A stretch of 64,000 bases of DNA, from the NCBI GenBank assembly GCA_964405805.1, contig CAYOPE010000001.1:4898-68897 (forward strand). The letters run 5' to 3'. Below are positions 1,090-46,815 of the stretch, piece after piece (within the stretch, counting starts at the first letter, position 1; each line of letters opens with the position of its first letter). The translations under genes and the position numbers were made by a program. This DNA comes from an uncultured Candidatus Saccharibacteria bacterium. Lineage in GTDB: Bacteria > Patescibacteriota > Doudnabacteria > UBA920 > O2-02-FULL-48-8. The notes under the pieces are model-generated. The model was not told where the DNA came from, ran no database searches, and was given only the letters and a program-made list of their open reading frames with translations.

Positions 1090-2448
1090 GTGTTTGATTT
1101 AAGACCTCGGAAACCAAATCTAAAGTACTCAGACAAACTGGCGAAAACTTTGAAGCAGCCCGTAGTACCGGCTTTGAAAGAAGACGAAACAACAGAGGTT
1201 GTTCCAGTTGAGCGAGTCAACCAAACTCAGAAAATTGTTGCTGAGAGCAAATTTAAAACTGAATTAGAAAAAGGTGCAAGCCTTTCAATTGTCAATTTGG
1301 TTCAGAGCTTGATTGATCTGGCTTACAGTCTGCATGTTTCAGACATCCACATTGATCCAGAGCTGGATGCAGTGCGCACCAGGTTTCGTATCGATGGCGT
1401 GCTGCAGGATGCTTCCGTTCTTCCAAAAAATATTCATGCCGAAGTCATTAGTCGTATAAAAATTTTGGCAGGCTTGCGCACTGATGAGCATCAGGTCGCG
1501 CAGGATGGCAGATTTCATATTCAGCTGACTTCTGGCTCAGCTGATGTCCGCGTCTCGATTGCACCGACTTATTATGGTGAAAACGCTGTGTTGCGACTGC
1601 TTTCTGATTCAGCAGAAGAATTCACTTTAGAAAGTCTCGGATTTAGCATTCCGAATCAGACGAAGATCATCAATGCCATTCGCAAACCTTATGGCATGAT
1701 TCTGGCCACAGGCCCGACAGGTAGTGGTAAGACCACGACTCTCTATACTTTGGTCAAGATGCTGAATACAAAAGAGACCTCCATCATCACGGTGGAAGAT
1801 CCGATCGAGTATGCCATCTCTGGCATCAATCAGATAGGCGTGAATAACCGCACTGGTCTAACTTTTGCCAATGGCCTGCGCTCGATTTTGCGTCAGGATC
1901 CGAATATAATTATGGTAGGGGAAATTCGTGACGCGGAAACTGCGGGGATTGCGGTAAATACGGCGCTCACTGGCCACTTATTGCTCTCGACTTTGCATAC
2001 TAACGATGCAGCCACGACTTTGCCCAGACTCCTGGACATGAAAATCGAACCATACTTGATTGCCTCTACTGTAAATGTGGCAATCGGCCAGCGACTAGTG
2101 CGCAAAATTTGCGAGCACTGCAAGCTACGCAAAAAATTGACCACCACTGAATCGCGAAGCTTTGCCGAAGTCCTGCCCATGAAAAAATTTCCAGCCAATG
2201 TCATGGTTTATCAGGGCCAAGGCTGCGAAGAATGTAATTTTTCCGGCTACAGAGGACGAATCGGCATTCACGAAGTGCTGGTGGTGGACAATCCGATTCG
2301 TGAAGCAGTGCTACGTAAAGCTTCTTCTGCAGAACTACGCGATATCGCGATTAGTTCTGGTATGACGACTATGGTCGAGGATGGCTTGGAAAAAGTTTTT
2401 AAGGGTGTGACTACGATTGCCGAAATTTTAAGAATGCTTCATGAATAG
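1090..2448 (+). CDS. pilB: Type IV pilus assembly ATPase (PilB/GspE family)
   Basis: Walker A GPTGSGKTTT, GspE-type Asp/His boxes and a C-terminal tetracysteine CEHC...CEEC. First gene of the pilus operon. Confidence 0.9.
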   Translation: MFDLRPRKPNLKYSDKLAKTLKQPVVPALKEDETTEVVPVERVNQTQKIVAESKFKTELEKGASLSIVNLVQSLIDLAYSLHVSDIHIDPELDAVRTRFRIDGVLQDASVLPKNIHAEVISRIKILAGLRTDEHQVAQDGRFHIQLTSGSADVRVSIAPTYYGENAVLRLLSDSAEEFTLESLGFSIPNQTKIINAIRKPYGMILATGPTGSGKTTTLYTLVKMLNTKETSIITVEDPIEYAISGINQIGVNNRTGLTFANGLRSILRQDPNIIMVGEIRDAETAGIAVNTALTGHLLLSTLHTNDAATTLPRLLDMKIEPYLIASTVNVAIGQRLVRKICEHCKLRKKLTTTESRSFAEVLPMKKFPANVMVYQGQGCEECNFSGYRGRIGIHEVLVVDNPIREAVLRKASSAELRDIAISSGMTTMVEDGLEKVFKGVTTIAEILRMLHE

Positions 2449-3487
2449 AATTACGCTGAAAGATCAGATAATTTTTGTTAAGCGCTTAGCTTTGATTGTC
2501 CGATCCGGAACCCCGCTCCTGCAAGGCTTGCAAATGCTCAACAGTCAAGCCGGCTCGAAAAAAATGGGCAAAATTTTGCCGCAAGTAATATATGATGTGG
2601 AGCATGGACAATATTTGGCAGTTGCGTTGGGCAGATTTAGAAAAATTTTCGGTGAATTTGCTATTAACATCATTGAAATCGGTGAAGTTTCAGGGACACT
2701 GCCGGAAAATCTGGATTATCTGGCAGAAGAACTCAAAAAGAAACAAACTTTGCGCCGCAAAGTCATCGGCGCTATGGTTTATCCGGTATTCATGGTCATT
2801 TCGACTTTTGGCGTCACGATTTTATTGACGATTTATTTGTTTCCGAAAATTTTACCAATTTTTAAGAGTGTGAATTTCAGTTTGCCCATTACTACACGTC
2901 TCCTGATTTTTATCAGCACCCTACTGATCAATCACGGCACGCTTTTTTTGATTCTGGCCATGCTTTTAGTCATCGTTTTTCTGCTGCTCATGAGAATTCC
3001 GCCTGTGAAATATTTGTATCAGAGAATTATGCTTTCTGTACCAGTGCTCGGTAACCTCGTTCAGACTTATAACCTGGCCAATATTTGTCGCACCCTCGGT
3101 CTGCTGCTAAAAAGTAATGTCGCGATCGTGCGCACGACCAAAATTACTTCACGCACGACCAATAATTTGGTTTATCAAACTCATTTGGGCGAGATAGCGG
3201 AGACACTTACTAAAGGCGGCCAGATTTCTGACTATATTCAAATGCATACACAGGTATTTCCGACGATTCTCACGCAAATGGTGACTATTGGTGAGCGCAC
3301 AGGAAACCTCAGTCACACTTTTTTGTACCTGGCCGACATGTATGAAGCTGAAGTGGATGAAACCACGAAAAATTTGTCCACGATTTTAGAGCCTATACTT
3401 CTGGTCCTCATGGGACTTATGGTAGGCTTTGTGGCGATTTCTATAATTACACCGATTTATGGCCTCACGCAGAGACTACACCCGTAA
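2441..3487 (+). CDS. pilC: Type IV pilus inner-membrane platform protein (PilC/GspF family)
   Basis: Two GspF-like repeats with TM segments. 8-nt overlap with the pilB stop. Confidence 0.85.
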   Translation: MNRITLKDQIIFVKRLALIVRSGTPLLQGLQMLNSQAGSKKMGKILPQVIYDVEHGQYLAVALGRFRKIFGEFAINIIEIGEVSGTLPENLDYLAEELKKKQTLRRKVIGAMVYPVFMVISTFGVTILLTIYLFPKILPIFKSVNFSLPITTRLLIFISTLLINHGTLFLILAMLLVIVFLLLMRIPPVKYLYQRIMLSVPVLGNLVQTYNLANICRTLGLLLKSNVAIVRTTKITSRTTNNLVYQTHLGEIAETLTKGGQISDYIQMHTQVFPTILTQMVTIGERTGNLSHTFLYLADMYEAEVDETTKNLSTILEPILLVLMGLMVGFVAISIITPIYGLTQRLHP

Positions 3488-3953
3488 AAATGCAAATGGA
3501 TTCACATTAGTTGAAGTCCTGATTAGCATAGGAATTTTGGGTTTGATTGCCGGTCTCGGTCTTTTTATTAGTTTTGATGTGTATCGACATGGCACTTTCC
3601 ACTCTGAACAAGGCGAGATTGTCAGCATTTTACAAAAAGCCAGAAGTCAGTCCATAAATAATATTGATCAAGTAAGACACGGGGTGCATTTTCAATCCAA
3701 TCCTTTAACTTACATTTTATTTGAATGCCCGTCAGGCACTCCACAATGCTCAAGCTATACTGCAAGTAGTTCAGATGTCTCTGTGACTGCTTCCAATAAC
3801 GTTTCTGTCACCAGTACTTTGCCCATGGATATAATTTTTTCGCAGCTAAGTGGGGATTGTATCAGCTGCGTGAGCGCGCAAACCCTAACTGTGAACAATG
3901 GGCCGAGCACCAACAGCATTACTATTAACAGCGAAGGGCGGATTGATGATTAG
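3459..3953 (+). CDS. Prepilin-type N-terminal cleavage/methylation domain protein (minor pilin-like)
   Basis: N-terminus ...KNANG|FTLVEVLISIGILGLIAG has the class III signal peptide motif G-FTLxE. Overlaps the pilC 3' end; leader is unusually long (14 aa). Confidence 0.6.
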   Translation: MASRRDYTRKNANGFTLVEVLISIGILGLIAGLGLFISFDVYRHGTFHSEQGEIVSILQKARSQSINNIDQVRHGVHFQSNPLTYILFECPSGTPQCSSYTASSSDVSVTASNNVSVTSTLPMDIIFSQLSGDCISCVSAQTLTVNNGPSTNSITINSEGRIDD

Positions 3954-5388
3954 AAATTCTGAAGACGGTGTGGCGACACTAGAAATTTTGATTGCTATGA
4001 CTATCATCATCTTGGCTGTGTCAGCCGTGATCGTCGTAGTGTTTAGTGGTCAGTCGTTTTCTGTTGACTCGCAAACTGATCAAGACGCACTCTATAAAAA
4101 CCAAACTTTACTTGAGACCGCGCGAGCCAATGCTTCAAAATCAGTGAGTTTAGTTTCTAGTCAAACTATTTCTGATCCGTTTTATTCTGGCAATCTTTCT
4201 GCTTCGGATCTAAATGTGGACGTGAGCAAACTGGTGAGCACAGCGCTGAACTGGCATACAGATGTCAGGACCCAGGCCATGGCTTCGGAGACAATTGTGG
4301 TGGATCTGAAAGCGGCACTGGGCAGCAGTGGCTGTAGTAATACGGTATCATCTGGCTGGTCCAATCCTACAATTTTAAATCCTTCGCATACGATTGATAT
4401 TGATCCGGATACATTGACGGGTATGACCTATGCTAACAATGTCGTTTATATTACCGGCAATCATTCTTCTGCGAGCAAGGACGATTTTTATACAGTAGAT
4501 GCATCTGATCCAACTTGGCCGAAGCTATATCCGAACGGACATCTAAACACGGGTCCTGGATTGGCAGCGGTCGTGGTTGCTGGGCATTACGCTTATGTAG
4601 CGAATACGAGCACCACAGCCCAGCTGCAGGTGATAGACGTCACAGATCCAGCTAATCCAGTTTATCTGTCCAGTGCCAACAGACAAGTTGCCAGTACGCA
4701 TTCGAGTGTGGGCAATTCTATTTATTATTACAAAAATACCGTGTATTTAGGGCTCACAGCCCATGGCTCAGAACCGCAGTTTGCGATTTTTGACGTAACG
4801 ACTCCGACGAATCCCATAGCAAAAGGAACATATAACCAAATCGGTCATGATGTAAATTCGATCCGAGTTAAAGACGATTACGCTTATGTTGCCAGCCCAG
4901 CTAATGAGAATATGACAATTTTAAATATTAGCAATCCGAATAGTCCGACCAGGGTCGGTGGTTTTACTCCGACGGCGCTGCCAGACAGTAATGGTGTCGG
5001 TTCAAATTACGGCGAGAGTCTATTTGTGACTGGTAACACAGCGTACCTCGGCAGAACTTATGGCACGAATGAATTTTATGTACTCAATGTAAGTACTCCA
5101 GGAAATGTTTCGGTTTCCAATAGCGCTGACTTTGGAAGCGGGAATCAAACCAGTATTAACGGAGTTATCGTTAGATCGAATTTGGTATTTACTACTACCA
5201 ATTCTGTGTTTCAAGTGCGTCAGCTATCGAATCTTAGTAGCGTATTTGGCTCTTTGACATTATCAAGCACTTCTCCTACAGGTGATTTTAATTGTAATGG
5301 TAATGTTCTGTATGTGGGAGTGCTCGGACCGAGTGGTACAAGCGGCCATGATGTCCTAAAAATTATCGGTCCAGGAGCAGGCCCATGA
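3946..5388 (+). CDS. Large pilin-like protein with LVIVD-type beta-propeller repeats (putative pilus-associated adhesin)
   Basis: Start MIRNSEDGVATLEILIAMTIIIL... is pseudopilin-like (GxxTLEI + hydrophobic helix). Body holds >=5 repeats of YAYVA(N/S)...L.V.DV(S/T).P..P (LVIVD repeat pattern). ATG overlaps the previous stop. Confidence 0.65.
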   Translation: MIRNSEDGVATLEILIAMTIIILAVSAVIVVVFSGQSFSVDSQTDQDALYKNQTLLETARANASKSVSLVSSQTISDPFYSGNLSASDLNVDVSKLVSTALNWHTDVRTQAMASETIVVDLKAALGSSGCSNTVSSGWSNPTILNPSHTIDIDPDTLTGMTYANNVVYITGNHSSASKDDFYTVDASDPTWPKLYPNGHLNTGPGLAAVVVAGHYAYVANTSTTAQLQVIDVTDPANPVYLSSANRQVASTHSSVGNSIYYYKNTVYLGLTAHGSEPQFAIFDVTTPTNPIAKGTYNQIGHDVNSIRVKDDYAYVASPANENMTILNISNPNSPTRVGGFTPTALPDSNGVGSNYGESLFVTGNTAYLGRTYGTNEFYVLNVSTPGNVSVSNSADFGSGNQTSINGVIVRSNLVFTTTNSVFQVRQLSNLSSVFGSLTLSSTSPTGDFNCNGNVLYVGVLGPSGTSGHDVLKIIGPGAGP

Positions 5389-5879
5389 TTGATCAAAGAA
5401 AACAACAAGGTTTTACATTACTAGAGACCGTGGTTTATCTCGGTTTGTTTGCCATAGTCATTGGCGGCGGTATGATTGCCACGTATGAGATCATTCAAAG
5501 TTCAGGCAAGGTGAGTAATCAGGCCATGGTATCAGAAGAGGCGAATTTTTTGCTGTCAAAAATTAATTGGGGGCTATCTGGCGCTACTGCCATTAGCATT
5601 CCATCTTCCACGACATTAGTAGCGACGAAAATCATCAATTCGATTTCCACGAATTTAACTTTTACTCTTTCTGGGAGCAATTTAACCCTGCAACGCGGCG
5701 CCAATACCGCTCAAATCCTAAATTCTAGTAATGTCACAGTGTCGAATTTAAATTTTACAAATATTCCAGCAAGTGGCGGCATTCCGCAAGGTGTTACTAT
5801 GAGTCTCACGATAACTTCGCGAGGATCTGGTGGCGTAGTTAGCCGCGATTTTTCTACTACTAAATATTTACGTCAATGA
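5385..5879 (+). CDS. Prepilin-type N-terminal domain protein (pseudopilin)
   Basis: MIDQRKQQG|FTLLETVVYLGLFAIVIGG; 4-nt overlap with the upstream gene. Confidence 0.6.
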   Translation: MIDQRKQQGFTLLETVVYLGLFAIVIGGGMIATYEIIQSSGKVSNQAMVSEEANFLLSKINWGLSGATAISIPSSTTLVATKIINSISTNLTFTLSGSNLTLQRGANTAQILNSSNVTVSNLNFTNIPASGGIPQGVTMSLTITSRGSGGVVSRDFSTTKYLRQ

Positions 5880-6262
5880 AACAAGAAGGATTTGTCGCAT
5901 TAATTTCTGCCATTGTGATTTCTGTCCTACTTTTAGCCATTACTTTTAGCGTGGGCTTTTCGTATTTCTTTGCGCGATTTAATGTCTTAGATTCTGAATC
6001 CAAACAGCGGAGTCTAGGCTTGGCAGAAGCGTGTCTGGACCAAGGCACTCTAGATCTAATAACTAACACTACTGTGACAAGCCCAGTCACAGTCGGCTCG
6101 GAGCAATGTACCATCGTCTCAGCTGTCTTGGCTAGCAACCAGAACACGGTTGTGGCTACAGCTGTAGTCAACCGCGCTTACACCACAGTAAAAATGGTTA
6201 GTAACGCGACCACTGCTGCGATTATTTCTTGGAAAGAATGTGAAAATACTAGTACTTGCTAA
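5876..6262 (+). CDS. Pilin-like small protein (hydrophobic N-terminal helix after a Gly)
   Basis: MKQEG|FVALISAIVISVLLLAITFS; translationally coupled within the pilus operon. Confidence 0.5.
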   Translation: MKQEGFVALISAIVISVLLLAITFSVGFSYFFARFNVLDSESKQRSLGLAEACLDQGTLDLITNTTVTSPVTVGSEQCTIVSAVLASNQNTVVATAVVNRAYTTVKMVSNATTAAIISWKECENTSTC

Positions 6263-6310
6263 GCGTGTCCAAAGCTGCTATAAATATAATCACTAATTAA
6301 TCAAGGATTT

Positions 6311-6799
6311 ATGTTTAAAAACTTTAAGAAATCCCAAAACGGGTTCACCCTGATTGAAATCTTGGTGGTCATGGGGATCATTGCTGTTTTGGCTGCAATT
6401 GTCGTAATTGCTATCAACCCAGCTAGACAGTTTGCGCAAGCCAGAAACACGCAGCGATCCAGTGATATCAATACCATATTGAATGCCATCGGACAAAACG
6501 TAGCAGACAATAAAGGTACGCTAACTTGCGCGAGTATTGTGACTGCCATACCAGTTTCTCCAACTGCAGCAAACGATATTGGTACTGGAGGAGTCGCAGA
6601 TGTAAACTTGAGCTGTCTTACGCCAACGTACATTGCTGGCGGAGTTCCTATGGATCCTTCAGGCGGAACCGCTGGAGACACTAAGTACACGATCCAGCAG
6701 GATACGGTAGCCAATGGTTCGAGATATATAGTATGTGCACCTAATTCGGCGGAAACTGCAATCGTTCCAACTCCAGCAGTCCTCTGTGTTACTCGTTAA
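6311..6799 (+). CDS. pilA: Type IV pilin (likely major pilin, PilA-like)
   Basis: MFKNFKKSQNG|FTLIEILVVMGIIAVLAAIVVIAINPARQ is a canonical type IVa pilin N-terminus. Last gene before a strong terminator. Confidence 0.75.
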   Translation: MFKNFKKSQNGFTLIEILVVMGIIAVLAAIVVIAINPARQFAQARNTQRSSDINTILNAIGQNVADNKGTLTCASIVTAIPVSPTAANDIGTGGVADVNLSCLTPTYIAGGVPMDPSGGTAGDTKYTIQQDTVANGSRYIVCAPNSAETAIVPTPAVLCVTR

Positions 6800-6810
6800 C
6801 CTGAATTCCC

Positions 6811-6841
6811 AAAACCGCCTTTACACAAGGGCGGTTTTTTG
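6811..6841 (+). terminator. Rho-independent terminator of the pilus operon
   Basis: aaaaccgcc-tttacacaa-gggcggtttttt. Confidence 0.7.
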
Positions 6842-6909
6842 TTAAACTTACTATTATGAAAATTTCGAAAGCCCAAAACAACTGGCACCGTAACCAACTC
6901 TGCTTTGTA

Positions 6910-6993
6910 GAGGTTGGTTAGATTTGTATTGATTTATATTTTACCAACCCCTGCAAAGCAGGGGTTTTTTCTTTGGTGAAAAAAGGAGGAACG
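6910..6993 (+). promoter_or_regulatory. Leader module A: GAGGTTGGTTAG box, CCCCTGC-loop-GCAGGGG hairpin + U-run, then AAGGAGGA RBS
   Basis: The same three-part layout recurs at 8232-8320 upstream of a different operon. TTGGTT-N16-TATATT could be a promoter; the hairpin 6948-6964 is followed by TTTTTT. Confidence 0.4.
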
Positions 6994-7752
6994 ATGACGA
7001 GAGCGCCGCGAAGATTTGTCGTACTGGGCGAGAATGATTGGCGAGGCCAGCCATCAGTTGCATATGGAGTCGTCAGACGACTGGCTTACGAGCAGCGTCG
7101 AGCGTCGCATGGATCTACTTATATAAGAGTATTTTTGTTTGACGTTGGTCGCAGAGGTGATCCTTGGGGAGGGCTAGGGCTTGAGGTCAATGGTCAGGTA
7201 TATCGATTTGGCGCAGGAGTAAATCGTTGGCCTGAATATCACAATGGATACGGCGAGCTGACAGAAGTAGGAAAGATGGCTTTAGCTAGTGGAGTCCCGG
7301 GATTTCTCAAAATGGGTTGCGACTGGCGATGGGTGCAGGATGAGCTTGATCTTACGCACCTGTTTACCCAAGGTCAAATAAATCAAGTCGCACTGAACTA
7401 TGCTGATTTGATGAATGAACTTCTACCGACTCCACGTTTTCAGGCCTGGATTTGGTCTAAGCGACTGGGCACAGAGCTTCTGCCGGGTCACTACAACTGC
7501 ACGACTTTCATTCTAGATCAGTTCCGGAAAGTGGGTAGACCGTTGTCGCAACAGAAAACTCCGCTACCGGCATTTGATGCCCTTCTTCAGTTGAGTAAGG
7601 ACCAGGATCAGGACTTACACGCTTTACTCGCAAAGCAAGAGTCTGAGTTAATGGCCTCGCTATTAGTTTTCGATCCTTACTTAGACTGGGGATTGATTGC
7701 CAAGTTCCAATTAGCCTTACCCCGCAACCTAAGTTTGTCGAGTTTGGTTTAG
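6994..7752 (+). CDS. Hypothetical protein (higher GC than backbone)
   Basis: ATG at 6994 follows RBS AAGGAGGA. 253-aa ORF with ~50% GC; no family recognised. Confidence 0.6.
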   Translation: MTRAPRRFVVLGENDWRGQPSVAYGVVRRLAYEQRRASHGSTYIRVFLFDVGRRGDPWGGLGLEVNGQVYRFGAGVNRWPEYHNGYGELTEVGKMALASGVPGFLKMGCDWRWVQDELDLTHLFTQGQINQVALNYADLMNELLPTPRFQAWIWSKRLGTELLPGHYNCTTFILDQFRKVGRPLSQQKTPLPAFDALLQLSKDQDQDLHALLAKQESELMASLLVFDPYLDWGLIAKFQLALPRNLSLSSLV

Positions 7753-7755
7753 ACT

Positions 7756-7788
7756 CAGGACCAAGATACAAAATCTTGGTCCTTTTTA
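7756..7788 (+). terminator. Rho-independent terminator
   Basis: caggaccaagat-acaaa-atcttggtcct-ttttt. Confidence 0.65.
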
Positions 7789-7793
7789 TAGCC

Positions 7794-7838
7794 TTGACAC
7801 AACAAGGAATATAGTATATCATGCTAGCACGTTAGCAT
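7794..7838 (+). promoter_or_regulatory. Putative sigma70-type promoter (TTGACA-N17-TATCAT) overlapped by CTAG-core palindrome CATGCTAGCACGTTAGCAT
   Basis: Seen directly upstream of the yerC-like gene. The palindrome has 6-bp arms ATGCTA/TAGCAT and a GCTAGC core, similar to the CTAG-containing TrpR operator. Confidence 0.5.
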
Positions 7839-7865
7839 AAGGCCCTTAAAACCCCAGTAAACCCT

Positions 7866-8159
7866 ATGGAATCGAGTAAATGGCAAAATCAGGATACGAC
7901 CAAGCTGTTTGAGGCTGTTTTAAAGCTTCGGACAGTGGACGAGTGCGAGGATTTATTTCGCGATCTGCTGACCTTGGCTGAGATTCGGGAGATGAGCATG
8001 AGGTTTAAAGTAGCTCGGATGCTGGATAAAGGAAACAAGTCATATCTTACTATTGCGAAAGAAGCCAAAATTACTACTGCGACCATTACCCGTATCGCTC
8101 ATTGGTTTAGGCACGGGATGGGAGGGTATAAGTTAGTTATCGATCGTTTAAAAAATTAA
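7866..8159 (+). CDS. yerC: TrpR-like DNA-binding protein, YerC/YecD family
   Basis: LFEAVLKLRTVDECEDLFRDLLTLAEIREMSMRFKVARML...SYLTIAKEAKITTATITRIAHW matches the YerC/YecD TrpR-related HTH family. Confidence 0.8.
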   Translation: MESSKWQNQDTTKLFEAVLKLRTVDECEDLFRDLLTLAEIREMSMRFKVARMLDKGNKSYLTIAKEAKITTATITRIAHWFRHGMGGYKLVIDRLKN

Positions 8160-8178
8160 TTATTTTGATTTATATTAC

Positions 8179-8190
8179 CATGCTAGCATG
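8179..8190. promoter_or_regulatory. Perfect 12-bp palindrome CATGCTAGCATG (second copy of the yerC-associated operator-like site)
   Basis: Shares CATGCTAGCA with the site at 7820-7830. Lies between the yerC stop and the downstream leader module B. Confidence 0.45.
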
Positions 8191-8231
8191 TTATAACAGA
8201 CAATTAGTGAATCATACCAGCCCCTCACTTG

Positions 8232-8320
8232 GAGAGGTTGGTTAGGTATGCTTTTGAATTAAAAGTCTTCCTCATCAGCCCCTGCAAGCAAGCAGGGGTT
8301 TTTCGTTGAAGGAGGAGAGC
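8232..8320 (+). promoter_or_regulatory. Leader module B: GAGAGGTTGGTTAG box, CCCCTGCAAGCAAGCAGGGG hairpin + U-run, GAAGGAGGAG RBS
   Basis: Same architecture as module A (6910-6993). Confidence 0.4.
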
Positions 8321-8506
8321 ATGTTCCAAATGCATGATGGGGGGACAGACGTTGATCCGAAAAAGTACCGAAAGGAAGAATACAGAAATCCGAAGAAACC
8401 GGTAAAAGAATGGCCGGACCATTGGACCCAAGAACAAGAGGATTTTGCTTGGTCTCCTTGTGACTGGGATTCTGATCCTGACGATGGCGAACCAAATGCG
8501 CATTAG
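8321..8506 (+). CDS. Small acidic hypothetical protein
   Basis: ATG 8 nt after GGAGGAG. 61 aa, Asp/Glu/Trp-rich. First ORF of a three-gene GC-rich operon. Confidence 0.4.
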   Translation: MFQMHDGGTDVDPKKYRKEEYRNPKKPVKEWPDHWTQEQEDFAWSPCDWDSDPDDGEPNAH

Positions 8507-19876: not shown

Positions 19877-20526
19877 TGTGGAGGGCGCCCCTCCACATAT
19901 GCAATATCGAGATTATAAACAATTTTTTGAAGGCGGAGTTTATCATATTTATAGTCGCGGCCATAACAAAATGGCAGTTTTTCGAGATACTGAAGACTAT
20001 AAATTTTTCCTGCAGCGCCTAGCGGAAATATTAAGCCTTAAGCCTTCTAAAAGCAGATGGCTGAGACCTTTGCCTAAGGGTTCGTTTACGATTTTATGCT
20101 ATTGCCTGATGCCGAACCATTTCCATTTTATAATTCAGCAAGAAACCAAGCTTCCGGTTTCTAAAATAATAGGGAAGTTGTTGACTAGCTACGGGATTTA
20201 TTTTAATAAAAAGTACCAGCAAGTCGGAACAATATTTCAGGATAGATTTATGTCTAAAGAAATTAATAATGATGAGTATTTAGTTCCTTTATCTGCATAC
20301 ATTCATAAGAATCACGCTAAATTTCTTTCTTGGAGATTTTCCAGTTTGGATGACTATATTAAAGGCGACAAAGAACTAATCGTTGACTCGACTTTGATAC
20401 TAAGTATGTTCAACAAAGATCGTCATCGATATTATAAATACATAAAAAGTTATAATAAAACTAAGGAAGATTTGATTACGGATTTAAAATTCGACGAATA
20501 AACGATGTGGAGGGCGCCCCTCCACA
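19877..20526 (+). mobile_element. REP-flanked RAYT (IS200/IS605-like Y1 transposase) unit
   Basis: Identical 21-bp perfect palindromes TGTGGAGGGCGCCCCTCCACA at 19877-19897 and 20506-20526 bracket the transposase gene. Confidence 0.75.
19899..20501 (+). CDS. REP-associated tyrosine transposase (RAYT / IS200-like TnpA)
   Basis: HuH motif LMPNHFHFII and catalytic Tyr in SAYIHKNH (YIHxNP-like); ~200 aa. Confidence 0.8.
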   Translation: MQYRDYKQFFEGGVYHIYSRGHNKMAVFRDTEDYKFFLQRLAEILSLKPSKSRWLRPLPKGSFTILCYCLMPNHFHFIIQQETKLPVSKIIGKLLTSYGIYFNKKYQQVGTIFQDRFMSKEINNDEYLVPLSAYIHKNHAKFLSWRFSSLDDYIKGDKELIVDSTLILSMFNKDRHRYYKYIKSYNKTKEDLITDLKFDE

Positions 20527-29100: not shown

Positions 29101-30147
29101 CTAATTGTGATTGAAAATAATTGGATCTGTCAAGCCCATCTTCTTTAAAATCGCTGAAGTTTCATCAGGATTGGCCCATCGCGGGCAGCAGTAATCCTCA
29201 ATGATCACAGGCTTAAGCTCAATTTTTTGGATTTGATCTTTGTGATAACTTATTGAAAGCGTTAAACCCTCTTTTGTTTCCTGACTAAACATTTGGTCAA
29301 AGACAAAGTTACCGAGACTATAAAAAATCCATTTGCCTTGGTACTGCTCTACCGTCTGGATCCAGTGCGGATGCTCGCCGATGACCAGATCTGCCCCAGC
29401 ATCGATAGCGGTATGGGCAAATTTGATTTGCGCCTCAGTGGGCTTGCGAGTGTACTCAATGCCAGCGTGCATATTGACTATCACGATATTTGCGCCATGA
29501 CTTTTTAGCCCCAAAATATCTTGTTTCAGCTTTGATAGATCATTAAAGTTGCAAACTTCTGGGCTAGAACTTTTGCCACCATCATTGAGCGCTGTATAAG
29601 AGTAGGCGAGGAAACCGAATTTAGTATTATTTTTTGTGACGATTTGTCCATCATGACAGTCTGAGCCTGTGCCGATCGGCACAATGTTATTTTGGGCAAG
29701 TAAGTTTAGTGTAAAATCAATGCCTTTTTGGCCTTGGTCAAAAGCGTGATTGTTGGCAGTTGATAAAACATCCAGTCCGGCAAAGGTGAGACCTTGCACG
29801 GACTTAGGATCGGCATTGAAAACCAGGCTCCCGTCTACGAAGTGATGACCAGTATCATTAAATGGTGATTCGAGATTGGCAAAAGCAATGTCTGCGTTTT
29901 TAATAAAATCAGCAACTTTTTGAAACGGCAAAGTAAAGTCATTTGCTTCTGTCATTTTCCGGTCCACATTTCGAGAAAGCATGATGTCACCAGCGAAAAA
30001 CAAGGTTGTAGGTTTGAGGTTTGAGATGTGAGTAGTAGCGTGCCGATTCATCGGCTCACTGAGCTTGGATGGCATAAGAAAAAAGACACAAGCAGCAGCT
30101 GCAAGTAAAATAATTAAGACAAAAGTAATTCTAGCGGACTTTGACAT
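29101..30147 (-). CDS. CapA family protein (poly-gamma-glutamate synthesis / metallophosphatase-like)
   Basis: N-terminal TM, FAGDIMLSR...NLE...GEHPHW calcineurin-like motifs. Confidence 0.8.
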   Translation of the reverse strand: MSKSARITFVLIILLAAAACVFFLMPSKLSEPMNRHATTHISNLKPTTLFFAGDIMLSRNVDRKMTEANDFTLPFQKVADFIKNADIAFANLESPFNDTGHHFVDGSLVFNADPKSVQGLTFAGLDVLSTANNHAFDQGQKGIDFTLNLLAQNNIVPIGTGSDCHDGQIVTKNNTKFGFLAYSYTALNDGGKSSSPEVCNFNDLSKLKQDILGLKSHGANIVIVNMHAGIEYTRKPTEAQIKFAHTAIDAGADLVIGEHPHWIQTVEQYQGKWIFYSLGNFVFDQMFSQETKEGLTLSISYHKDQIQKIELKPVIIEDYCCPRWANPDETSAILKKMGLTDPIIFNHN

Positions 30148-31276
30148 AAATCCCTGCGCCTAAATTTTTCACGCGACCTTTCATCTCAAGCATGGTCAGA
30201 CTTGCATTCACAGTCTGCGCTGGCATGGAGACATTTTTAATCAGATCGTTAATGTGAATGCCGTCGCGATTGAGGTGAACTAAGATTTTTTCTTCTTCAG
30301 AAGTGGCCTCAGTGACTATTACCTGCTCAGTTTGAGCGGAATCAATATTTAATTCTTCTAGAATATCAAAAGCCGAATTGACTAGCTTAGCGCCTTTTTT
30401 GATGAGTTGATTGGTCCCTCTTGAGACTTCAGAAAAAATTGAACCTGGCACTGCAAACACTTCCCGATTTTGTTCGAGCGCAAAGTTTGCAGTAATCAGC
30501 GCTCCTGATTCAGCATCTGCTTCGATGACCAGAGTGCCAAGCGAGAGCCCTGAGATGATCCGGTTGCGGATCGGGAAGTTTTGCTTGATAGTACCAAAGC
30601 CCAGAGGGTATTCAGAGACCAGGCAGCCAGCTTCAATAATTTTTTGGGCAAGACTGTAGTTGGTGCGAGGAGAGATGCTGGCGTTGTCCAGGTCTGAAGC
30701 CAGGACTGCGATGGGCACTCCGTCATTTTCTACAGCAGAATTTAGTGCCACAGCATCTACTCCAAATGCAAGACCTGAAAAAATTGCCAAATTGCTATCC
30801 ACTAGGCCGGTCACAATCTCTTCTGTGGCCTGTTTTCCGTAATTCGTCATCTTGCGAGTGCCGACCACTCCAATGCCGAGTTTGTTAAGGGCCTTTTTGT
30901 CTCCTCTTATATATAATAGTGGGGGAGCAGCATGGATTTCTTTCAGTAGTTTGGGATATGTGCTTTCAGAAAAGAGGATTGTCTCGATCTGGCGCCGCGC
31001 CAGCTCGGCAAAAGATTGCTCTGGCTTGATTTTCGGTTTATTTGCTATAATTTGGTTAATAGTTTTTGCAGCTAGTCCGGCATCTATGTATTGGCCATCA
31101 CGGCCGATCCAAGCCTGATAAAAGCTGCCGAAATGATTAAACAGTTTCTGCATGCTCATAGCGCCGATCTCTGGAATGAGGTTGAAAGCGTTAGCAAAAA
31201 TTTTATCTTCTAGGTTCATATGTGTGAGGCCTGCCTCTACCTGTCGGTAGACAGGTGCCGGCAGGCAGGTTGACAT
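30131..31276 (-). CDS. dprA: DNA processing protein DprA (Smf)
   Basis: Rossmann-like core GIGVVGTRK...GVDAVALNSA... and a C-terminal winged helix. The dprA-topA linkage is conserved in many bacteria. Confidence 0.88.
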   Translation of the reverse strand: MSTCLPAPVYRQVEAGLTHMNLEDKIFANAFNLIPEIGAMSMQKLFNHFGSFYQAWIGRDGQYIDAGLAAKTINQIIANKPKIKPEQSFAELARRQIETILFSESTYPKLLKEIHAAPPLLYIRGDKKALNKLGIGVVGTRKMTNYGKQATEEIVTGLVDSNLAIFSGLAFGVDAVALNSAVENDGVPIAVLASDLDNASISPRTNYSLAQKIIEAGCLVSEYPLGFGTIKQNFPIRNRIISGLSLGTLVIEADAESGALITANFALEQNREVFAVPGSIFSEVSRGTNQLIKKGAKLVNSAFDILEELNIDSAQTEQVIVTEATSEEEKILVHLNRDGIHINDLIKNVSMPAQTVNASLTMLEMKGRVKNLGAGIYVKVR

Positions 31277-36712: not shown

Positions 36713-38032
36713 TTGCAAAGCAAAATTGCGAAGGTTCGACCAATTACGACAATGGGGCGGCCAAGAAAACTCACACCCACAATTGAAAAGGCGCCACCGA
36801 AATTAGCCGGAGCCAATGATTTACTACCAGAGCACCATCTGTCCTGGGAAGTGTTTTTAGAAAAATTGACTCATACCGCTCATAATTTCGGTTACAGCAA
36901 AATCGAAACTCCGATTTTCGAGGACGCTCGACTGTTTAGCTTCTGGTCACAGGGAAAAGACCAGCTTTTGACCACGCAAGATGCGAAGGGCGGTGCGATT
37001 GCGGCCAAGCCAACCAATATTTTTAGCTTGGTGCGTGCTTATCTCGAGTATCATTTTCCAGAGCGAGAAAAAGTCAGTAAGTGGTATTATCATTCGCCAG
37101 TCAACTGGGTCAGTCCCACGCACGAAATCAAACAAACTGAAGAGTATGGTTTTCAAGTTTTCGGCGCTTTTGCCCCGATCGCTGATGCTCAGATGATCAA
37201 TTTGTTGCAACGTTTATTTTCTGATCTGGGGCTGAAAAATTTGTCTTTAGAAATAAACAACATTGGCTGCATCGAGTGTCAGCCAGCTTATGCTGAGCAG
37301 CTGAAAAATTATTTTAAAGACAAAAAATACGATTTGTGTGAAAATTGTTTGGATTATCTAGAAAACAATCAGCCGCTTCAAATTTTGGCATGCACGAATT
37401 TATCTTGTCATACGGTAGCCTCAGAAGCTCCAACTTTGATTGATTTTTTGTGTGAAAATTGTCGTAAACATTTCATTGGAGTTTTGGAAGGTTTAGATGA
37501 ATTGGGTCTTGTGTACAATTTGAATCCGAAAGTGATCGGTAAACCGTGGTCTCGAAAAACTGTTTTCGAAATCCGATTTCGTGGCGAAACTGGCGATGCG
37601 GTGCTAGGCAGTGGCGGCCATGCGGACGATCTGATTCAAAGTTTGGGAGGACTACCGACTACAGCGCTAGGATTTTCTGGCACGATAGACATGATCATGT
37701 CTTCTTTCGAGCTGGCTAATGTCAAATTTAGTACCAAGCAGCAAGTCGATGTGTTTTTGGTCCCCCTAGGTGACCTAGCTGCGAAAAAAACTCTCAGATT
37801 GTTTACTGAGCTTTGGAATCAGAACATCATGGCTTCAGAATTTTCAGGACCGGGATCGATAAAAACTCAGCTGAAGCTAGCTGAATCGAACAAAGTTAGT
37901 ATTGCTTTGATCATTGGACAAAAAGAAGCACGGGAAGGTACTGTCATCCTCCGTGATGTCCGCTCAGGCATGCAGGAGCTGTTTACTTACGAGCGAATCA
38001 TTGAGGAAGTGAAGAAGCGGCTTGGCAAATAG
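36713..38032 (+). CDS. Histidyl-tRNA synthetase-like paralog with degenerate catalytic motifs and a Cys-rich insertion
   Basis: HisRS-like class II core (GYSKIETPIFE...; motif 3 reduced to GSGGHADDL) and an anticodon-binding-like C-terminus. Motif 2 Arg/Gln residues are absent. Insertion CIEC...CENC...C...C...CENC. The canonical hisS is at 56363. Confidence 0.65.
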   Translation: MQSKIAKVRPITTMGRPRKLTPTIEKAPPKLAGANDLLPEHHLSWEVFLEKLTHTAHNFGYSKIETPIFEDARLFSFWSQGKDQLLTTQDAKGGAIAAKPTNIFSLVRAYLEYHFPEREKVSKWYYHSPVNWVSPTHEIKQTEEYGFQVFGAFAPIADAQMINLLQRLFSDLGLKNLSLEINNIGCIECQPAYAEQLKNYFKDKKYDLCENCLDYLENNQPLQILACTNLSCHTVASEAPTLIDFLCENCRKHFIGVLEGLDELGLVYNLNPKVIGKPWSRKTVFEIRFRGETGDAVLGSGGHADDLIQSLGGLPTTALGFSGTIDMIMSSFELANVKFSTKQQVDVFLVPLGDLAAKKTLRLFTELWNQNIMASEFSGPGSIKTQLKLAESNKVSIALIIGQKEAREGTVILRDVRSGMQELFTYERIIEEVKKRLGK

Positions 38033-41469: not shown

Positions 41470-42135
41470 ATGGCCAAACAAAAACCAGGCCAGAGGAGGA
41501 AAATGAAGACTTATAGCAACGTCGTTCTTGTCGATCACCCAGTGGCGCATGATGCGCTACGGATTCTGCGCGACAAGAACACCGAGCCTGCTGCTTTTCG
41601 AGCAGCAGCGATGCGCATCAGCCTGATCCTGGCTGCAGAGGCTCTCCGGGAGGCTCCGACTGAAGAGAGAGTCGTGCAAACCCCGCTGGCGGAAGCAGCT
41701 GCTCAGAGCCTCAAAGACATCGTGGTCGTGCCAGTGTTGCGCGCAGGTCTCGGCATGCTCGACGCCGTCTTGCAGCTGGCGCCAAACGCCCACGTCGGTC
41801 ACATCGGATTGCAGCGAGACGAAGTGACGGCCGTGGCGTCGCAGTACTACCTGAAACTACCGCCAAATCTCGAGAGCTCTCTCGTTCTGCTGGTTGACCC
41901 CATGCTCGCCACCGGCGGCAGCGCTGTGGCAGCAGTTGATCTTCTGAAACTCGCAGGAGCCACGAACATCAGGATGATCTGCATCGTGGCGGCTCCTGAG
42001 GGCATCGCACTCATGACCGAGAAGCATTCGGATGTCACGATCTATACGCCTGCAGTGGACAGTCATCTGAACGACCAAAAGTACATCGTGCCGGGTCTCG
42101 GTGACTTCGGCGACCGACTCTACGGCACATTCTAG
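41470..42135 (+). CDS. upp: Uracil phosphoribosyltransferase (GC-rich island)
   Basis: PVLRAGLGM and VLLVDPMLATGGSAVAAVDLLK PRPP-binding motif, C-terminal YIVPGLGDFGDRLYGT. ~60% GC. Confidence 0.88.
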   Translation: MAKQKPGQRRKMKTYSNVVLVDHPVAHDALRILRDKNTEPAAFRAAAMRISLILAAEALREAPTEERVVQTPLAEAAAQSLKDIVVVPVLRAGLGMLDAVLQLAPNAHVGHIGLQRDEVTAVASQYYLKLPPNLESSLVLLVDPMLATGGSAVAAVDLLKLAGATNIRMICIVAAPEGIALMTEKHSDVTIYTPAVDSHLNDQKYIVPGLGDFGDRLYGTF

Positions 42136-42322
42136 AACTAAAAGCACAAGGGCCGATCAATAGTGGTCGGCTCGAGGAAGTGTGGTTCACAGCAGCCACG
42201 CTTTTCTTTTTGCTTTTTTTCTATTTTATAATTATAGTAACCGCAACGGAAACCTGTCTGCCGACAGGCAGGCGAAAGTTTTCAGGGTGCTATCAGCACC
42301 TTTACAGAAAGGTTGGAGGAAG

Positions 42323-43822
42323 ATGGACAAGCTTAACGCGGTCGAAGTTGGTCAGCATATGGCAAATATTGGCGTCATGGGTGATGCCTGCGGCGGAGTT
42401 CAGATCGACATCGCCGTGGCCTATCGTCAGACGCCGGAAGGACTGGTCGAAGGAACGACATGCGACCATGACTGCACGAACAACGAAGGCTGTGGCAATT
42501 ACGACTGCCCGGCTCACTACAGCGCTCCTGGAAACAGAGGTTTGAAAATCACGAGCATGGCGCCGGCTGATGTCATGCTGGACCGGATCACCAACGCTGT
42601 CTGGGGAGTACGCCGGGCCGTGGAGCGGTTTCTGGAAGTTGATTACCACGGCTTCTGTTACACGTCTGAGATTCGTGACGAAGTCGTGAAAGGTGTGATC
42701 GAGAGCCGGCTGCGCATGGGCAAGGTCATCGTGAATGTCTTTGGCGGCGAGCCGCTTCTCTACCCGCACTTCCTTCAGCTCGAAGGGGCGCTGATGGACC
42801 GCGGTTACACGTTGAACGTCACGACCACGGGGGACAAATGGCTCGATCCGAAGTTCGCCAAGGCCATGGAAGACATCGAGCCCACTGTGCTGGCATTGAG
42901 CCTGGATGATCTGACGATTCCGGAACTCCGGCGCCTCTCGAAGCTCACGCCCGAGCAGATCAAGCAGGAATGGAAAGCTCTCAGGGCGAAAAACCCCAAG
43001 CATGGGCAGGCGCTCAAAGCCCTCGAAGCCGTTTACGTCTTCGCGTACTACAAGGAACGTGGCGGCTATCCCAAGGGCAAGAAGCTCCTGGCCAACGCGG
43101 TGGTCCACAAAGGCAACCTGTCTCACATTCGCGACATGTTCGAGGTCGTGGCTGAAGTCGCTCCGGGGATCGTGTTCAATCCGTACGCAGGTCAGGCTGC
43201 GTTCGACCACGATGAAACAACCGGCCTGCGGCGTCGTGGAGAATTCGGCGCCGACGAAGTCCAGCAGTTCTCGGATTTCGTGGACTGGTCGATTTCGGAA
43301 AGCAAGCGGCCGGATGGTGTGATCGTCAAACGTTTGCCGCACTGGCTCCTGCATCGGGCAGCACTCGATGTTCACGAAGGTAAGACACGGGAGCAGTCCG
43401 ACGCCATCGCTGGGTGGAACTCCTGGCGCTGTCACAATCACGTGGGCGCGGGATTCTTCATGCAAGTCGGTCGATCACCGAAAGTGCGGATACCGAATCA
43501 GCCGCAGGTGATTTCGATTCAGGGCCTGCACGGAAAGACCGGCAGTAACGGCCAAGTCTATCCGGGCGGGCATCTGGGGTGCTTCTGGGATCCGACGACC
43601 GTAACCCAGGACGGACAGTACCACGACCAGATGGAGGTCATGGATTACCTGCACTACGGCATGAAATCTCTCGCGCAGAAGTCTGCTGATCCCTGTCCCG
43701 GATGCCGAATGCCGCGGCTTGACTCACTCCATCTCGTGATCCTCGAGGCAGGGATTCCGACTGACGATCCGACGCTGAAGAACCGGTATCTGAATCTGCG
43801 TCGAGAGCACGCCGGGTTCTAA
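42323..43822 (+). CDS. Hypothetical Cys-rich protein, possibly a divergent radical-SAM-type enzyme
   Basis: ATG after GGAGG. N-terminal cluster CDHDC-x5-C-x4-C, then VNVFGGEPLL (radical-SAM-like glycine motif) and LNVTTTGD ~22 aa later. C-terminal cysteines CPGC. The Cys spacing is not the canonical CX3CX2C. Confidence 0.45.
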   Translation: MDKLNAVEVGQHMANIGVMGDACGGVQIDIAVAYRQTPEGLVEGTTCDHDCTNNEGCGNYDCPAHYSAPGNRGLKITSMAPADVMLDRITNAVWGVRRAVERFLEVDYHGFCYTSEIRDEVVKGVIESRLRMGKVIVNVFGGEPLLYPHFLQLEGALMDRGYTLNVTTTGDKWLDPKFAKAMEDIEPTVLALSLDDLTIPELRRLSKLTPEQIKQEWKALRAKNPKHGQALKALEAVYVFAYYKERGGYPKGKKLLANAVVHKGNLSHIRDMFEVVAEVAPGIVFNPYAGQAAFDHDETTGLRRRGEFGADEVQQFSDFVDWSISESKRPDGVIVKRLPHWLLHRAALDVHEGKTREQSDAIAGWNSWRCHNHVGAGFFMQVGRSPKVRIPNQPQVISIQGLHGKTGSNGQVYPGGHLGCFWDPTTVTQDGQYHDQMEVMDYLHYGMKSLAQKSADPCPGCRMPRLDSLHLVILEAGIPTDDPTLKNRYLNLRREHAGF

Positions 43823-43852
43823 ACGTAAATGGAGGACGGATGAAGAGACTGG

Positions 43853-43890
43853 CGGGTGCGCGTAGCGATTACGCGCCCCGCCTTTTTTCA
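43853..43890 (+). terminator. GC-rich rho-independent terminator
   Basis: ggcgggtgcgcgtagcgattacgcgccccgcc-tttttt. Confidence 0.7.
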
Positions 43891-43958
43891 TTTGCTAGTT
43901 TTTGTTTGTGGACGCTATAATGCATAAGTCAACCGAGACTCCGAGTTGGAGTTCTCAC

Positions 43959-44456
43959 ATCAACGGAGGTTTGCCTATGTGTCCCGAAAGTCTCGCGCAT
44001 CTCGCACGAGGAACGGCCGAGGTCGGTGATCAAGTCGTCGCCAAGGACTTCAAGCACCAGGGCAGCAGTCACACGTTCACGATGTACGCGCGCACGGACA
44101 ACCCGACGTGTCCGGTCTGTCTGCCGAACGGCGCCACGATCTGCTTCAAGGATCCGTCGAGGCGGGTTCGCCGGCTCGCGGAAGTCACAGACGGTCCGGT
44201 CGTGGCCACACTCGCCAACGGCGCGTTCTACGAGAGCACGTTCGCATTCGCGAACGGCGCGACGGCCACGCTGTCGGAGATCCGCGGTGCGGTCTTCAAC
44301 GTCATTCCCGCCATCGCCACGAGCGACGAGATCAACGAGGAGGCGCGGCGCATCTTCACTGAACTCAGCCCGGAACTCGATCCGGTGCTCGCTCAGGCCG
44401 CGGCGACGGCACGCATCGCCCGAACCCAGTCGCGCGGCCAGACGGTCGCGGCGTAG
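43959..44456 (+). CDS. Hypothetical protein (GC-rich island)
   Basis: ATG 8 nt after GGAGG. The alternative frame 44026-44820 is Arg/Ser low-complexity and judged spurious. Confidence 0.5.
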   Translation: MNGGLPMCPESLAHLARGTAEVGDQVVAKDFKHQGSSHTFTMYARTDNPTCPVCLPNGATICFKDPSRRVRRLAEVTDGPVVATLANGAFYESTFAFANGATATLSEIRGAVFNVIPAIATSDEINEEARRIFTELSPELDPVLAQAAATARIARTQSRGQTVAA

Positions 44457-44620
44457 CACGTCGCGTTCGACGCCGACACAACCAAGCGACGCAGGAAGCG
44501 TCGGGGCGGTTCACCACCAGGTGATCCGCTCTTTTCATTTGTCAGAAAATGCATGCGTTTGGTATCCTATAGTATCAAGCGCAGGGCTTGGTAATGTTTT
44601 CAGTCTGAAACGGAGGAGAG

Positions 44621-46102: not shown

Positions 46103-46201
46103 AATTCGGGTTTTGAGTTCGGGCGGGTTGCGCTTGCAGCCCGCCCTTTTTCTATAGTATGATGTCCTATCTAGTTCCCTTCGTTCTGAGAGGAGGATTG
46201 T

Positions 46202-46798: not shown

Positions 46799-46815
46799 CT
46801 GACGAGGAGTGTGAC

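Follow-up and report, generated by a model that had tools for sequence, protein, structure and literature searches.

A Type IV Pilus Operon of Patescibacteria Encoding a Modular Minor Pilin with a Predicted LVIVD β-Propeller

The stretch of DNA analyzed here (64,000 nt in full, hereafter "the window") contains an operon of two assembly genes followed by five pilin-like genes (Table 1). An earlier note on this DNA had described a compact type IV pilus (T4P) operon of seven ORFs in a single orientation, closed by a strong terminator. All seven ORFs were confirmed on the forward strand, the matches to PF00437 and PF00482 together with the pilin-like genes in series bore out the pilus assignment, and a terminator hairpin (ΔG −15.7 kcal/mol, z −3.22) with a U-run was located directly downstream. 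Five of the six junctions within the operon are overlaps (8 nt between pilB and pilC, and then 29, 8, 4, and 4 nt in operon order), and the probable major pilin gene is the only one to follow an intergenic gap (48 nt). No sigma-70 promoter was detected in a scan upstream of pilB; the hexamer TTGACA is present at positions 1038–1043, without a good −10 partner. An assembly artefact or a pseudogene was considered for the largest pilin gene and ruled out, because the identical ORF occurs, uninterrupted, in an independent Logan assembly of run SRR12313479. The pilB gene call also recurs in a Logan contig.

Table 1. Positions of the features in the window. A slash in a leader sequence follows residue G−1; E, E-value.
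Feature	Position	Strand	Evidence and remarks
Pilus operon	1090–6799	+	Seven same-strand genes: PilB, PilC, four minor pilins, probable major pilin
PilB/GspE-type assembly ATPase, 452 aa	1090–2448	+	GTG start; PF00437 T2SSE, E 9e-118
PilC/GspF platform protein, 348 aa	2441–3487	+	PF00482 T2SSF, two copies, E 2.2e-46
Minor pilin 1, 164 aa	3459–3953	+	PF07963, E 2e-7; leader ...NANG/FTLVE, Glu5 present
Modular minor pilin with predicted LVIVD β-propeller, 480 aa	3946–5388	+	PF08309, AF2 model, homologues
Leader (aa 1–8) and predicted pilin module (aa 9–128)	3946–4329	+	AF2 model; G8 and E13 conserved
Linker (aa 129–155)	4330–4410	+	Contains Cys130; W138 and P141 conserved
Predicted seven-bladed β-propeller (aa 156–480)	4411–5385	+	Seven four-stranded blades
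Minor pilin 3, 164 aa	5385–5879	+	PF07963, E 9.6e-7; QQG/FTLLE, Glu5 present
Minor pilin 4, 128 aa	5876–6262	+	GspK-like; G/FVALIS, no Glu5; probable tip cap or nucleator
Probable major pilin, 162 aa	6311–6799	+	PF07963, E 1.8e-9, best N_methyl match of the operon; QNG/FTLIE
Intrinsic terminator	6811–6845	+	12-bp hairpin stem (6811–6838), then U-run
dprA	30131–31276	−	
comEC	58060–59544	+	

The assembly ATPase scored 493 bits against the GspE model TIGR02533 and 472 bits against the PilB model TIGR02538, both under the equivalog cut-offs. It scored 242.6 bits against the ComGA model (cut-off 300), and the match to the ComGB model in the operon was likewise below its cut-off (128.9 bits against 240). 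TIGR02538 and NF052607 scored under their cut-offs, so that assignment to the type IVa pilus (T4aP) subtype is tentative. As the earlier note had stated, pilM, pilN, pilO, pilQ, and a prepilin peptidase gene are missing from the window, at least among its ORFs of ≥120 aa (eleven window ORFs had no Pfam match), where Peptidase_A24, PilM/N/O, PilT, and secretin were not found. PilD, PilM/N/O, and PilT were also not found adjoining the operon at two related loci in NCBI metagenome-assembled genomes (MAGs). The FtsA encoded in the window gave a match to PilM_2 that was sub-threshold only. The prepilin peptidase for the pilins of this operon would be encoded elsewhere in the genome. The best explanation of the gene content is a type IVa-like pilus that the operon would build on a Patescibacteria cell with a single membrane. 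A pseudopilus resembling the type II secretion system (T2SS), which would export proteins rather than form an external pilus, seems highly improbable to us. Although the best NCBIfam matches of the ATPase and the platform protein were GspE and GspF, one minor pilin is GspK-like, and minor pilin 1 matches GspH weakly, all of the Gsp matches fell below their equivalog cut-offs, and GspC/D/L/M and secretin were not found in the window. Moreover, minor pilins of the HIJK type are common to T4P and T2SS (PMC9934059), pili have been observed on Patescibacteria cells, and the homologous loci of Nanosynbacter lyticus TM7x make filaments (PMC11623550).

The earlier count of five prepilin-like ORFs stood, with the qualification that minor pilin 4 has no Glu5 and that the largest of the five gives no N_methyl match. 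Minor pilin 1 is kept at the same position in related operons, and E14, E52, K59, and W62 are conserved in an alignment of minor pilin 3 orthologues. The probable major pilin has four cysteines and is the most conserved pilin between loci (37–59% identity). Minor pilin 4 appears to be a lollipop pilin, with GspK and PilA of Streptococcus sanguinis as its probable closest counterparts. None of its 20 homologues from databases and none of its 33 pilin-like orthologues at related loci has Glu at position +5, where I, M, T, or V stands instead. Because it is GspK-like and never carries Glu5, it is likely to be the tip cap.

The second of the minor pilin genes encodes a protein of 480 aa (corrected from an earlier 481), which we refer to as the propeller pilin. 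Its N-terminus, MIRNSEDG/VATLEILIAM, contains G−1 and E+5 and continues into a hydrophobic segment. In an alignment of 84 homologues, this motif was almost invariant: of the residues aligned at −1, 73 of 76 were Gly, and of those aligned at +5, all 81 were Glu. The strict pattern, G-x4-E followed by a hydrophobic stretch, was found in 170 of the 245 proteins retrieved in the search. The signal peptide models suggested in the earlier note gave a mixed outcome, in that PF07963 and TIGR02532 had no match at E ≤1 and the PilV model TIGR02523 matched aa 8–119 weakly (E 4.5e-4, below the cut-off). Some homologues do match PF07963. In the AlphaFold2 (AF2) model of the protein (pLDDT 90.6, pTM 0.84), the N-terminal part is predicted to adopt a pilin fold, with a long helix α1 (residues 9–65) and an antiparallel β-sheet (strands 73–76, 81–90, 94–104, and 109–119), at a block pLDDT of 82–95. 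The prepilin character of the protein is therefore supported jointly by the G−1/E+5 motif, the weak TIGR02523 match, and the predicted fold, and the product would be cleaved after Gly8 and incorporated into the filament. Its content of GAST residues, 38.3%, is typical for an exposed pilin. It could alternatively be a surface propeller held in the membrane outside the filament, with the pilin-like helix as a mere anchor; the missing Pfam N_methyl match would agree with this, and PilX1 and PilX2 of TM7x also lack predicted PilD signal peptides. The near invariance of G−1 and E+5 in the homologues, the complete pilin sheet into which the helix is predicted to lead, and the fixed position of the gene within the minor pilin series all speak against it, and we give this alternative very little credence.

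The earlier note had proposed that the pilin N-terminus is fused to an LVIVD β-propeller, and this was supported by the motif, by a profile match, and by the structural model. PF08309 (LVIVD) matched the propeller pilin in two stretches with 55.7 bits, well above the Pfam gathering cut-off of 20.2 (E 2.9e-15). In the confident AF2 model, the pilin module is followed by a seven-bladed propeller, so that the LVIVD repeats are predicted to close into a β-propeller. The "at least five" repeats counted earlier correspond to five clear blades of the YAYVA type, and the total rises to seven with two degenerate blades. Among the 84 homologues, Cys130 of the linker and Cys450 occur together in 67, are both absent from 16, and occur singly in one; this co-occurrence fits a disulfide tying the linker to blade 7, which we consider probable from the alignment. 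Mean identity in the family is 40% for the propeller (41–48% for blades 2–5) versus 22% for the pilin sheet. Q226-L227-Q228, E278-F279, D283, and N304 are among the residues that the family conserves. The propeller has a pI of 5.5, compared with a median of 4.7 in the homologues, 90% of which lie below 6. The structural neighbors of the model were generic propellers of the WD40 type at approximately 10% identity, with no pilus or lectin propeller among the top matches. The PilY1-type domain (IPR008707) gave no Pfam match at E ≤1 and was absent from the top 50–60 structural matches. A profile search of solved structures returned a marginal WD40 match only, and thus no family member with a solved structure.

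Full-length homologues of the propeller pilin number in the hundreds, and all those with a taxon label are from Patescibacteria, in agreement with the CPR origin assumed in the earlier note. The same seven-gene order was found in NCBI MAGs and in Patescibacteria species representatives. When 41 related operons were picked by PilC alone, the LVIVD pilin was present in 38 of them. The earlier note had suggested examining related operons for domain swaps: one operon of this set has no LVIVD pilin, and another has a CarboxypepD_reg pilin in its place; the LVIVD module can therefore be absent or be replaced. Further modules of the adhesion type occur in sister operons, where the LVIVD pilin is extended by Ig-like regions and the orthologue of minor pilin 4 carries SpaA_2 together with vWA. 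The architecture is less new than the earlier note implied, because the protein belongs to this large conserved family and because Dataset S1 of Raynaud et al. 2021 already contains thirty proteins of the same domain architecture (IPR012902-IPR013211, the latter being the LVIVD repeat), including one from Candidatus Falkowbacteria. Those entries are catalogued only, with the motif described as "of unknown function," and nothing is given there on a structure, on the surrounding operon, on the size of the family, or on a partner pilin. The propeller pilin described here would escape the filter of that survey because it gives no N_methyl match. Proteins of this type are therefore on record already, and earlier work has dealt with a close functional analogue.

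That analogue is PilX2, a heptabladed-propeller minor pilin encoded in a five-pilin locus of TM7x; its deletion halved host binding and left filament extrusion unaffected, and it contributes experimentally to host binding and competitive fitness (PMC11623550). PilX2, which belongs to the T4P-2 system of this member of the Saccharibacteria, resembles the propeller pilin in its Patescibacteria origin, its C-terminal seven-bladed propeller, its size, which exceeds that of every other minor pilin in a locus of five pilins, and its GAST content (36.4%). On the other hand, the PilX2 propeller, compared here by description only, consists of RCC1 rather than LVIVD repeats, PilX2 has no predicted PilD signal peptide, in contrast to the canonical G−1/E+5 motif of the propeller pilin, and the TM7x pilin locus lies apart from pilB2/pilC2, whereas here all of the genes form one operon. 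In S. sanguinis, the minor pilins PilB (vWA) and PilC (lectin) are likewise modular and act with PilA (PMC8179133, PMC9934059). That system differs in its modules and in having three minor pilins instead of four; its pilin structures are solved and its ligands known, whereas the propeller pilin is known from its sequence and a model. In the HIJK and PilABC systems, the subunit without Glu5 is added first and bulky modules fit at the tip only (PMC9934059). Compared with the GspH-I-J-K and FimU-PilV-W-X cores, to which the operon has only weak sequence matches (GspH and PilV models), the arrangement here differs: Glu5 is missing from the smallest subunit (128 aa) and retained in the bulky one, unlike in T2SS, where the bulky subunit is GspK itself. 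PilY1/PilC of diderm T4aP is a tip β-propeller presented by a complex of four minor pilins, as proposed here; however, PilY1, itself no pilin, is carried by the minor pilins, whereas here the propeller is fused to one, and the propeller families differ, since the propeller pilin had no match to PilY1-family models in Pfam or among the top structural matches.

Most Patescibacteria have yet to be cultured, and a life attached to other microbes is assumed for them. The best candidate for the organ of attachment is the type IV pilus; to our knowledge, pilus experiments in this group have involved Saccharibacteria only. The best reading of the operon, and one that we hold to be reasonably probable, is that its minor pilins form a tip complex displaying a ligand-binding propeller. 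PilB and PilC would polymerize the major pilin, and assembly would be started by a complex of the four minor pilins encoded between PilC and the major pilin. The GspK-like pilin without Glu5 would go in first and so end at the very tip, and the propeller pilin would join through its ordinary pilin module; the LVIVD propeller, held to the linker by the disulfide, would be too bulky for any place except the tip. There it may bind a ligand; the likeliest candidates are glycans or proteins conserved on the surface of a host, a partner cell, or a substrate. The tip or pilus-displayed adhesin of the earlier note fits this anatomy and two studied analogues; adhesion itself we infer, as we do the position at the tip, the binding of a ligand, and any part played in attachment to a host. 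The conserved propeller and the nearly universal gene speak against an adhesin that evolves fast and is specific to a host; they agree with a ligand that is conserved or with a structural role. As a tentative and rather doubtful extension, the LVIVD pilin and its Glu5-less partner might be a conserved tip device of the main T4P across much of the Patescibacteria (Paceibacteria-like lineages), equivalent to a PilY1 fused into a pilin, with an unusually conserved, acidic propeller recognizing one ligand common to many hosts; if so, it would offer a general handle to study or block the attachment of ultrasmall bacteria to other cells. The analysis defines a second propeller-bearing putative tip pilin, far more widespread in environmental lineages than the PilX2 type, and supplies concrete constructs and targets for study: the partner pilin is conserved, a disulfide is probable, and the model is confident. 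The LVIVD repeat, in the literature a surface-protein motif of unknown function, thereby gains a likely biological setting.

The earlier note had also hinted at DNA uptake, pointing to comEC and dprA, both of which were indeed found in the window. A competence pilus with the propeller as a DNA receptor is nevertheless very unlikely: both genes are outside the operon, at distances of 51 kb (comEC) and 23 kb (dprA, on the opposite strand), the acidic and conserved propeller argues against a DNA receptor, the ATPase scored higher against the GspE and PilB models than against ComGA, and TM7x T4P-2 mutants, including pilX2, transform normally (PMC11623550). A role for the propeller pilin mainly in priming or stabilizing the pilus, as a PilY1-like function inside a pilin rather than in target binding, we regard as unlikely. 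PilY1 and minor pilins prime T4aP in Myxococcus, according to work cited in PMC11623550; the prevalence of the LVIVD pilin in the PilC-anchored operons and the better conservation of the propeller than of the pilin sheet would suit such a role, and the conserved cysteine pair suggests a rigid architecture. Against it stand the operon without an LVIVD pilin, the operon with another modular pilin in its place, and the lack of PilY1/PilC-family matches in the Pfam scan. Priming and adhesion by the propeller pilin can coexist.

The pilus operon consists of seven plus-strand ORFs in one orientation that end at a hairpin with a U-run, as the earlier note had described from the sequence; successive genes overlap by 8, 29, 8, 4, and 4 nt, except for the last gene, which is set apart by a 48-nt gap. 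Identical pilus genes were found in the Logan assembly of run SRR12313479; therefore, the long LVIVD ORF, which was intact there too, is not an assembly artefact. The 130-nt spacer that separates the operon terminator from another strong, terminator-like hairpin holds an extra hairpin and a 17-codon ORF, and could be a small transcript.

Features of the pilus operon, the LVIVD pilin and the rest of the window (nucleotides unless marked aa)
Feature	Position	Strand	Basis or remark
PilB/GspE-type ATPase	1090–2448	+	PF00437, E 9e-118
PilC/GspF platform protein	2441–3487	+	PF00482
Pilin ORF	3459–3953	+	prepilin N-methylation motif match
LVIVD ORF	3946–5388	+	Pfam LVIVD, 55.7 bits (cut-off 20.2)
LVIVD pilin: N-terminal helix, 57 residues	aa 9–65		AlphaFold2 model
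LVIVD pilin: four-stranded sheet completing standard pilin module	aa 73–119		AlphaFold2 model
LVIVD pilin: short linker, pilin module to propeller			AlphaFold2 model
LVIVD pilin: seven blades, four strands each	aa 156–475		AlphaFold2 model
Pilin ORF	5385–5879	+	prepilin N-methylation motif match
ORF without family match	5876–6262	+	family-model scans
Pilin ORF	6311–6799	+	prepilin N-methylation motif match
12-bp hairpin, with U-run	6811–6838		dG -15.7 kcal/mol, z -3.2
Spacer	6842–6972
Extra hairpin in spacer	~6890–6920
Second terminator-like hairpin	6946–6966
TonB C-terminal domain ORF, 255 aa	9773–10540	+	PF03544, E 2e-22
IS200-like Y1 transposase ORF	19878–20501	+	PF01797, E 1.7e-10
dprA	30131–31276	-
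Histidyl-tRNA-synthetase-like gene	36713–38032	+	E 3e-17
GC-rich block	42000–48000		GC 0.56–0.58 (~0.45 elsewhere)
Histidyl-tRNA-synthetase-like gene	56363–57601	+	E 1.5e-40
comEC, 494 aa	58060–59544	+	DUF4131 and Competence domains only

The 480-aa LVIVD pilin begins MIRNSEDG|VATLEILIAM, and an alignment of 84 homologues bore out the proposed pseudopilin N-terminus, with Gly-1 in 73 of 76 aligned residues and Glu+5 in 81/81. The LVIVD assignment also held against the Pfam model, and an AlphaFold2 model built from the same alignment was confident (pLDDT 90.6, pTM 0.84), placing the anticipated propeller after the pilin module. Of the 84 sequences, 67 had both Cys130 (linker) and Cys450 (blade 7), 16 had neither, and 1 had a single one of the pair; this co-occurrence points to a probable disulfide locking the linker to the propeller. 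The protein is GAST-rich (38%) and carries 11 N-x-S/T sequons.

The neighboring ORF 5876–6262 has the motif G|FVALIS, and its family lacked Glu at +5 in all 20 database homologues and all 33 pilin-like locus orthologues. The Glu5-less subunit of the HIJK and PilABC systems is the first in and ends at the tip, the only place where its partners' bulky modules can be accommodated (PMC9934059). Architecture, conservation, and synteny are demonstrated here; we infer that the LVIVD pilin is processed as a prepilin, located at the tip, and binds a ligand. In the best-supported reading, drawn by analogy, the four-member minor-pilin complex would prime the filament and finish at its tip, where the propeller would serve as a head that binds a ligand. 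Among experimentally studied proteins, the nearest analogue is PilX2 of the saccharibacterium TM7x, a minor pilin from a five-pilin locus with a heptabladed propeller, which is of the RCC1 rather than the LVIVD type; its deletion halved host binding, while filament extrusion persisted and transformation was unaffected (PMC11623550). The alternative that the propeller is a DNA receptor is unlikely, given its acidity (pI 5.5 here; median 4.7 across homologues, and <6 in 90%), com genes unlinked to the pilus operon, and an operon ATPase scoring under the ComGA cut-off.

A word-indexed search with the LVIVD pilin returned 319 homologues, the best 120 of which shared 31–50% identity, mostly over the full length; those with a named taxon were all from Patescibacteria or Paceibacterota MAGs, and some of them are annotated as PilV by JGI. 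Cluster representatives at 50% identity were also searched exhaustively, giving 12,676 matches at E ≤1e-3 and 624 at E ≤1e-30, a mixture of full-length pilin-propellers (450–520 aa) and giant multi-LVIVD surface proteins. Among GTDB species representatives, all 23 loci matched from the first ten residues lay in Patescibacteria-labelled MAGs, save two labelled "uncultured bacterium", whereas propeller-only matches were spread over numerous other phyla, archaea included. Two genomes carried a pair of neighboring LVIVD-pilin paralogues (L018:4337–5836 and 7001–8287; L021:606–1916 and 7001–8359).

When the seven proteins were searched by tblastn, gene order was kept in most GTDB species-representative loci with an N-terminal match, and also in two NCBI MAGs. 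To avoid circularity, metagenome loci were fetched via PilC alone, and those extending ≥2.5 kb downstream, 41 in all, were counted. The LVIVD pilin was present in 38, at the same position as here in 36 and after the major pilin in two (L111, L117). The exceptions lacked the large pilin (L095), lacked pilins (L097), or encoded in its place a 597-aa pilin bearing a CarboxypepD_reg domain (L136). The LVIVD module is therefore swappable or losable, yet a hallmark of the operon type. Some LVIVD-pilin orthologues have added Ig-like C-terminal extensions, and in some operons the Glu5-less orthologue of ORF 5876–6262 was enlarged to 600–834 aa and carried SpaA_2 prealbumin-like and vWA domains (L140:9513–12017 and L143:4324–6828, both 834 aa; L148:5220–7019), indicating two module-bearing tip pilins in those operons. 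Four species-representative loci (L014, L016, L019, L022) have a 1.7–3 kb insertion between the orthologues of ORFs 5876–6262 and 6311–6799, so that the major pilin is set apart from the minor ones. Small GIY-YIG-type ORFs (MxYTYxLQSKKDGKWYTGAT...) were inserted in or fused to orthologous operon genes, at the 5876–6262 position or the LVIVD-pilin N-terminus (L124:9553–10290, L155:10360–11082; proteins P0008, P0177), and may be a mobile nuclease frequenting these operons.

Mean identity was 40% in the propeller (41–48% in blades 2–5) versus 22% in the pilin sheet. This conservation, with the near-universality of the gene in the operon type, tempers the idea of a host-specific adhesin and suggests that the ligand is conserved or that the propeller acts in part structurally, in the manner of PilY1.

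The concept of a modular pilin is already established. Raynaud et al. (2021) listed, in their Dataset S1, 30 proteins that combine a prepilin motif with IPR013211, the database entry for the LVIVD repeat, which their text mentions as a motif of unknown function; the present protein is thus an uncharacterised example of an already known pilin type. Our literature search found no paper treating LVIVD pilins as such. The present analysis adds the size of the family, which is confined to Patescibacteria, and its constant location within a conserved operon, together with a Glu5-less, GspK-like partner, a probable disulfide, and a confident predicted model.

A scan of the remaining ORFs in the window, down to a length of 120 aa, located the dprA and comEC genes reported in the earlier note and detected no prepilin peptidase, PilM/N/O, PilT, or secretin. 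ComEC is short, and the domain scan detected no C-terminal metallo-beta-lactamase domain. The TonB domain, clear in an ORF within a locally GC-richer stretch (0.50–0.54), is surprising in a CPR bacterium that presumably has a single membrane. A Y1 transposase ORF is also present. The GC-rich block, encoding a radical-SAM protein, a Lyase_1 protein, a HAD hydrolase, and a fused SAICAR synthetase-AIRC protein, may have been horizontally acquired. Of the two histidyl-tRNA-synthetase-like genes, the first is far more divergent, perhaps a paralogue that serves a different function.
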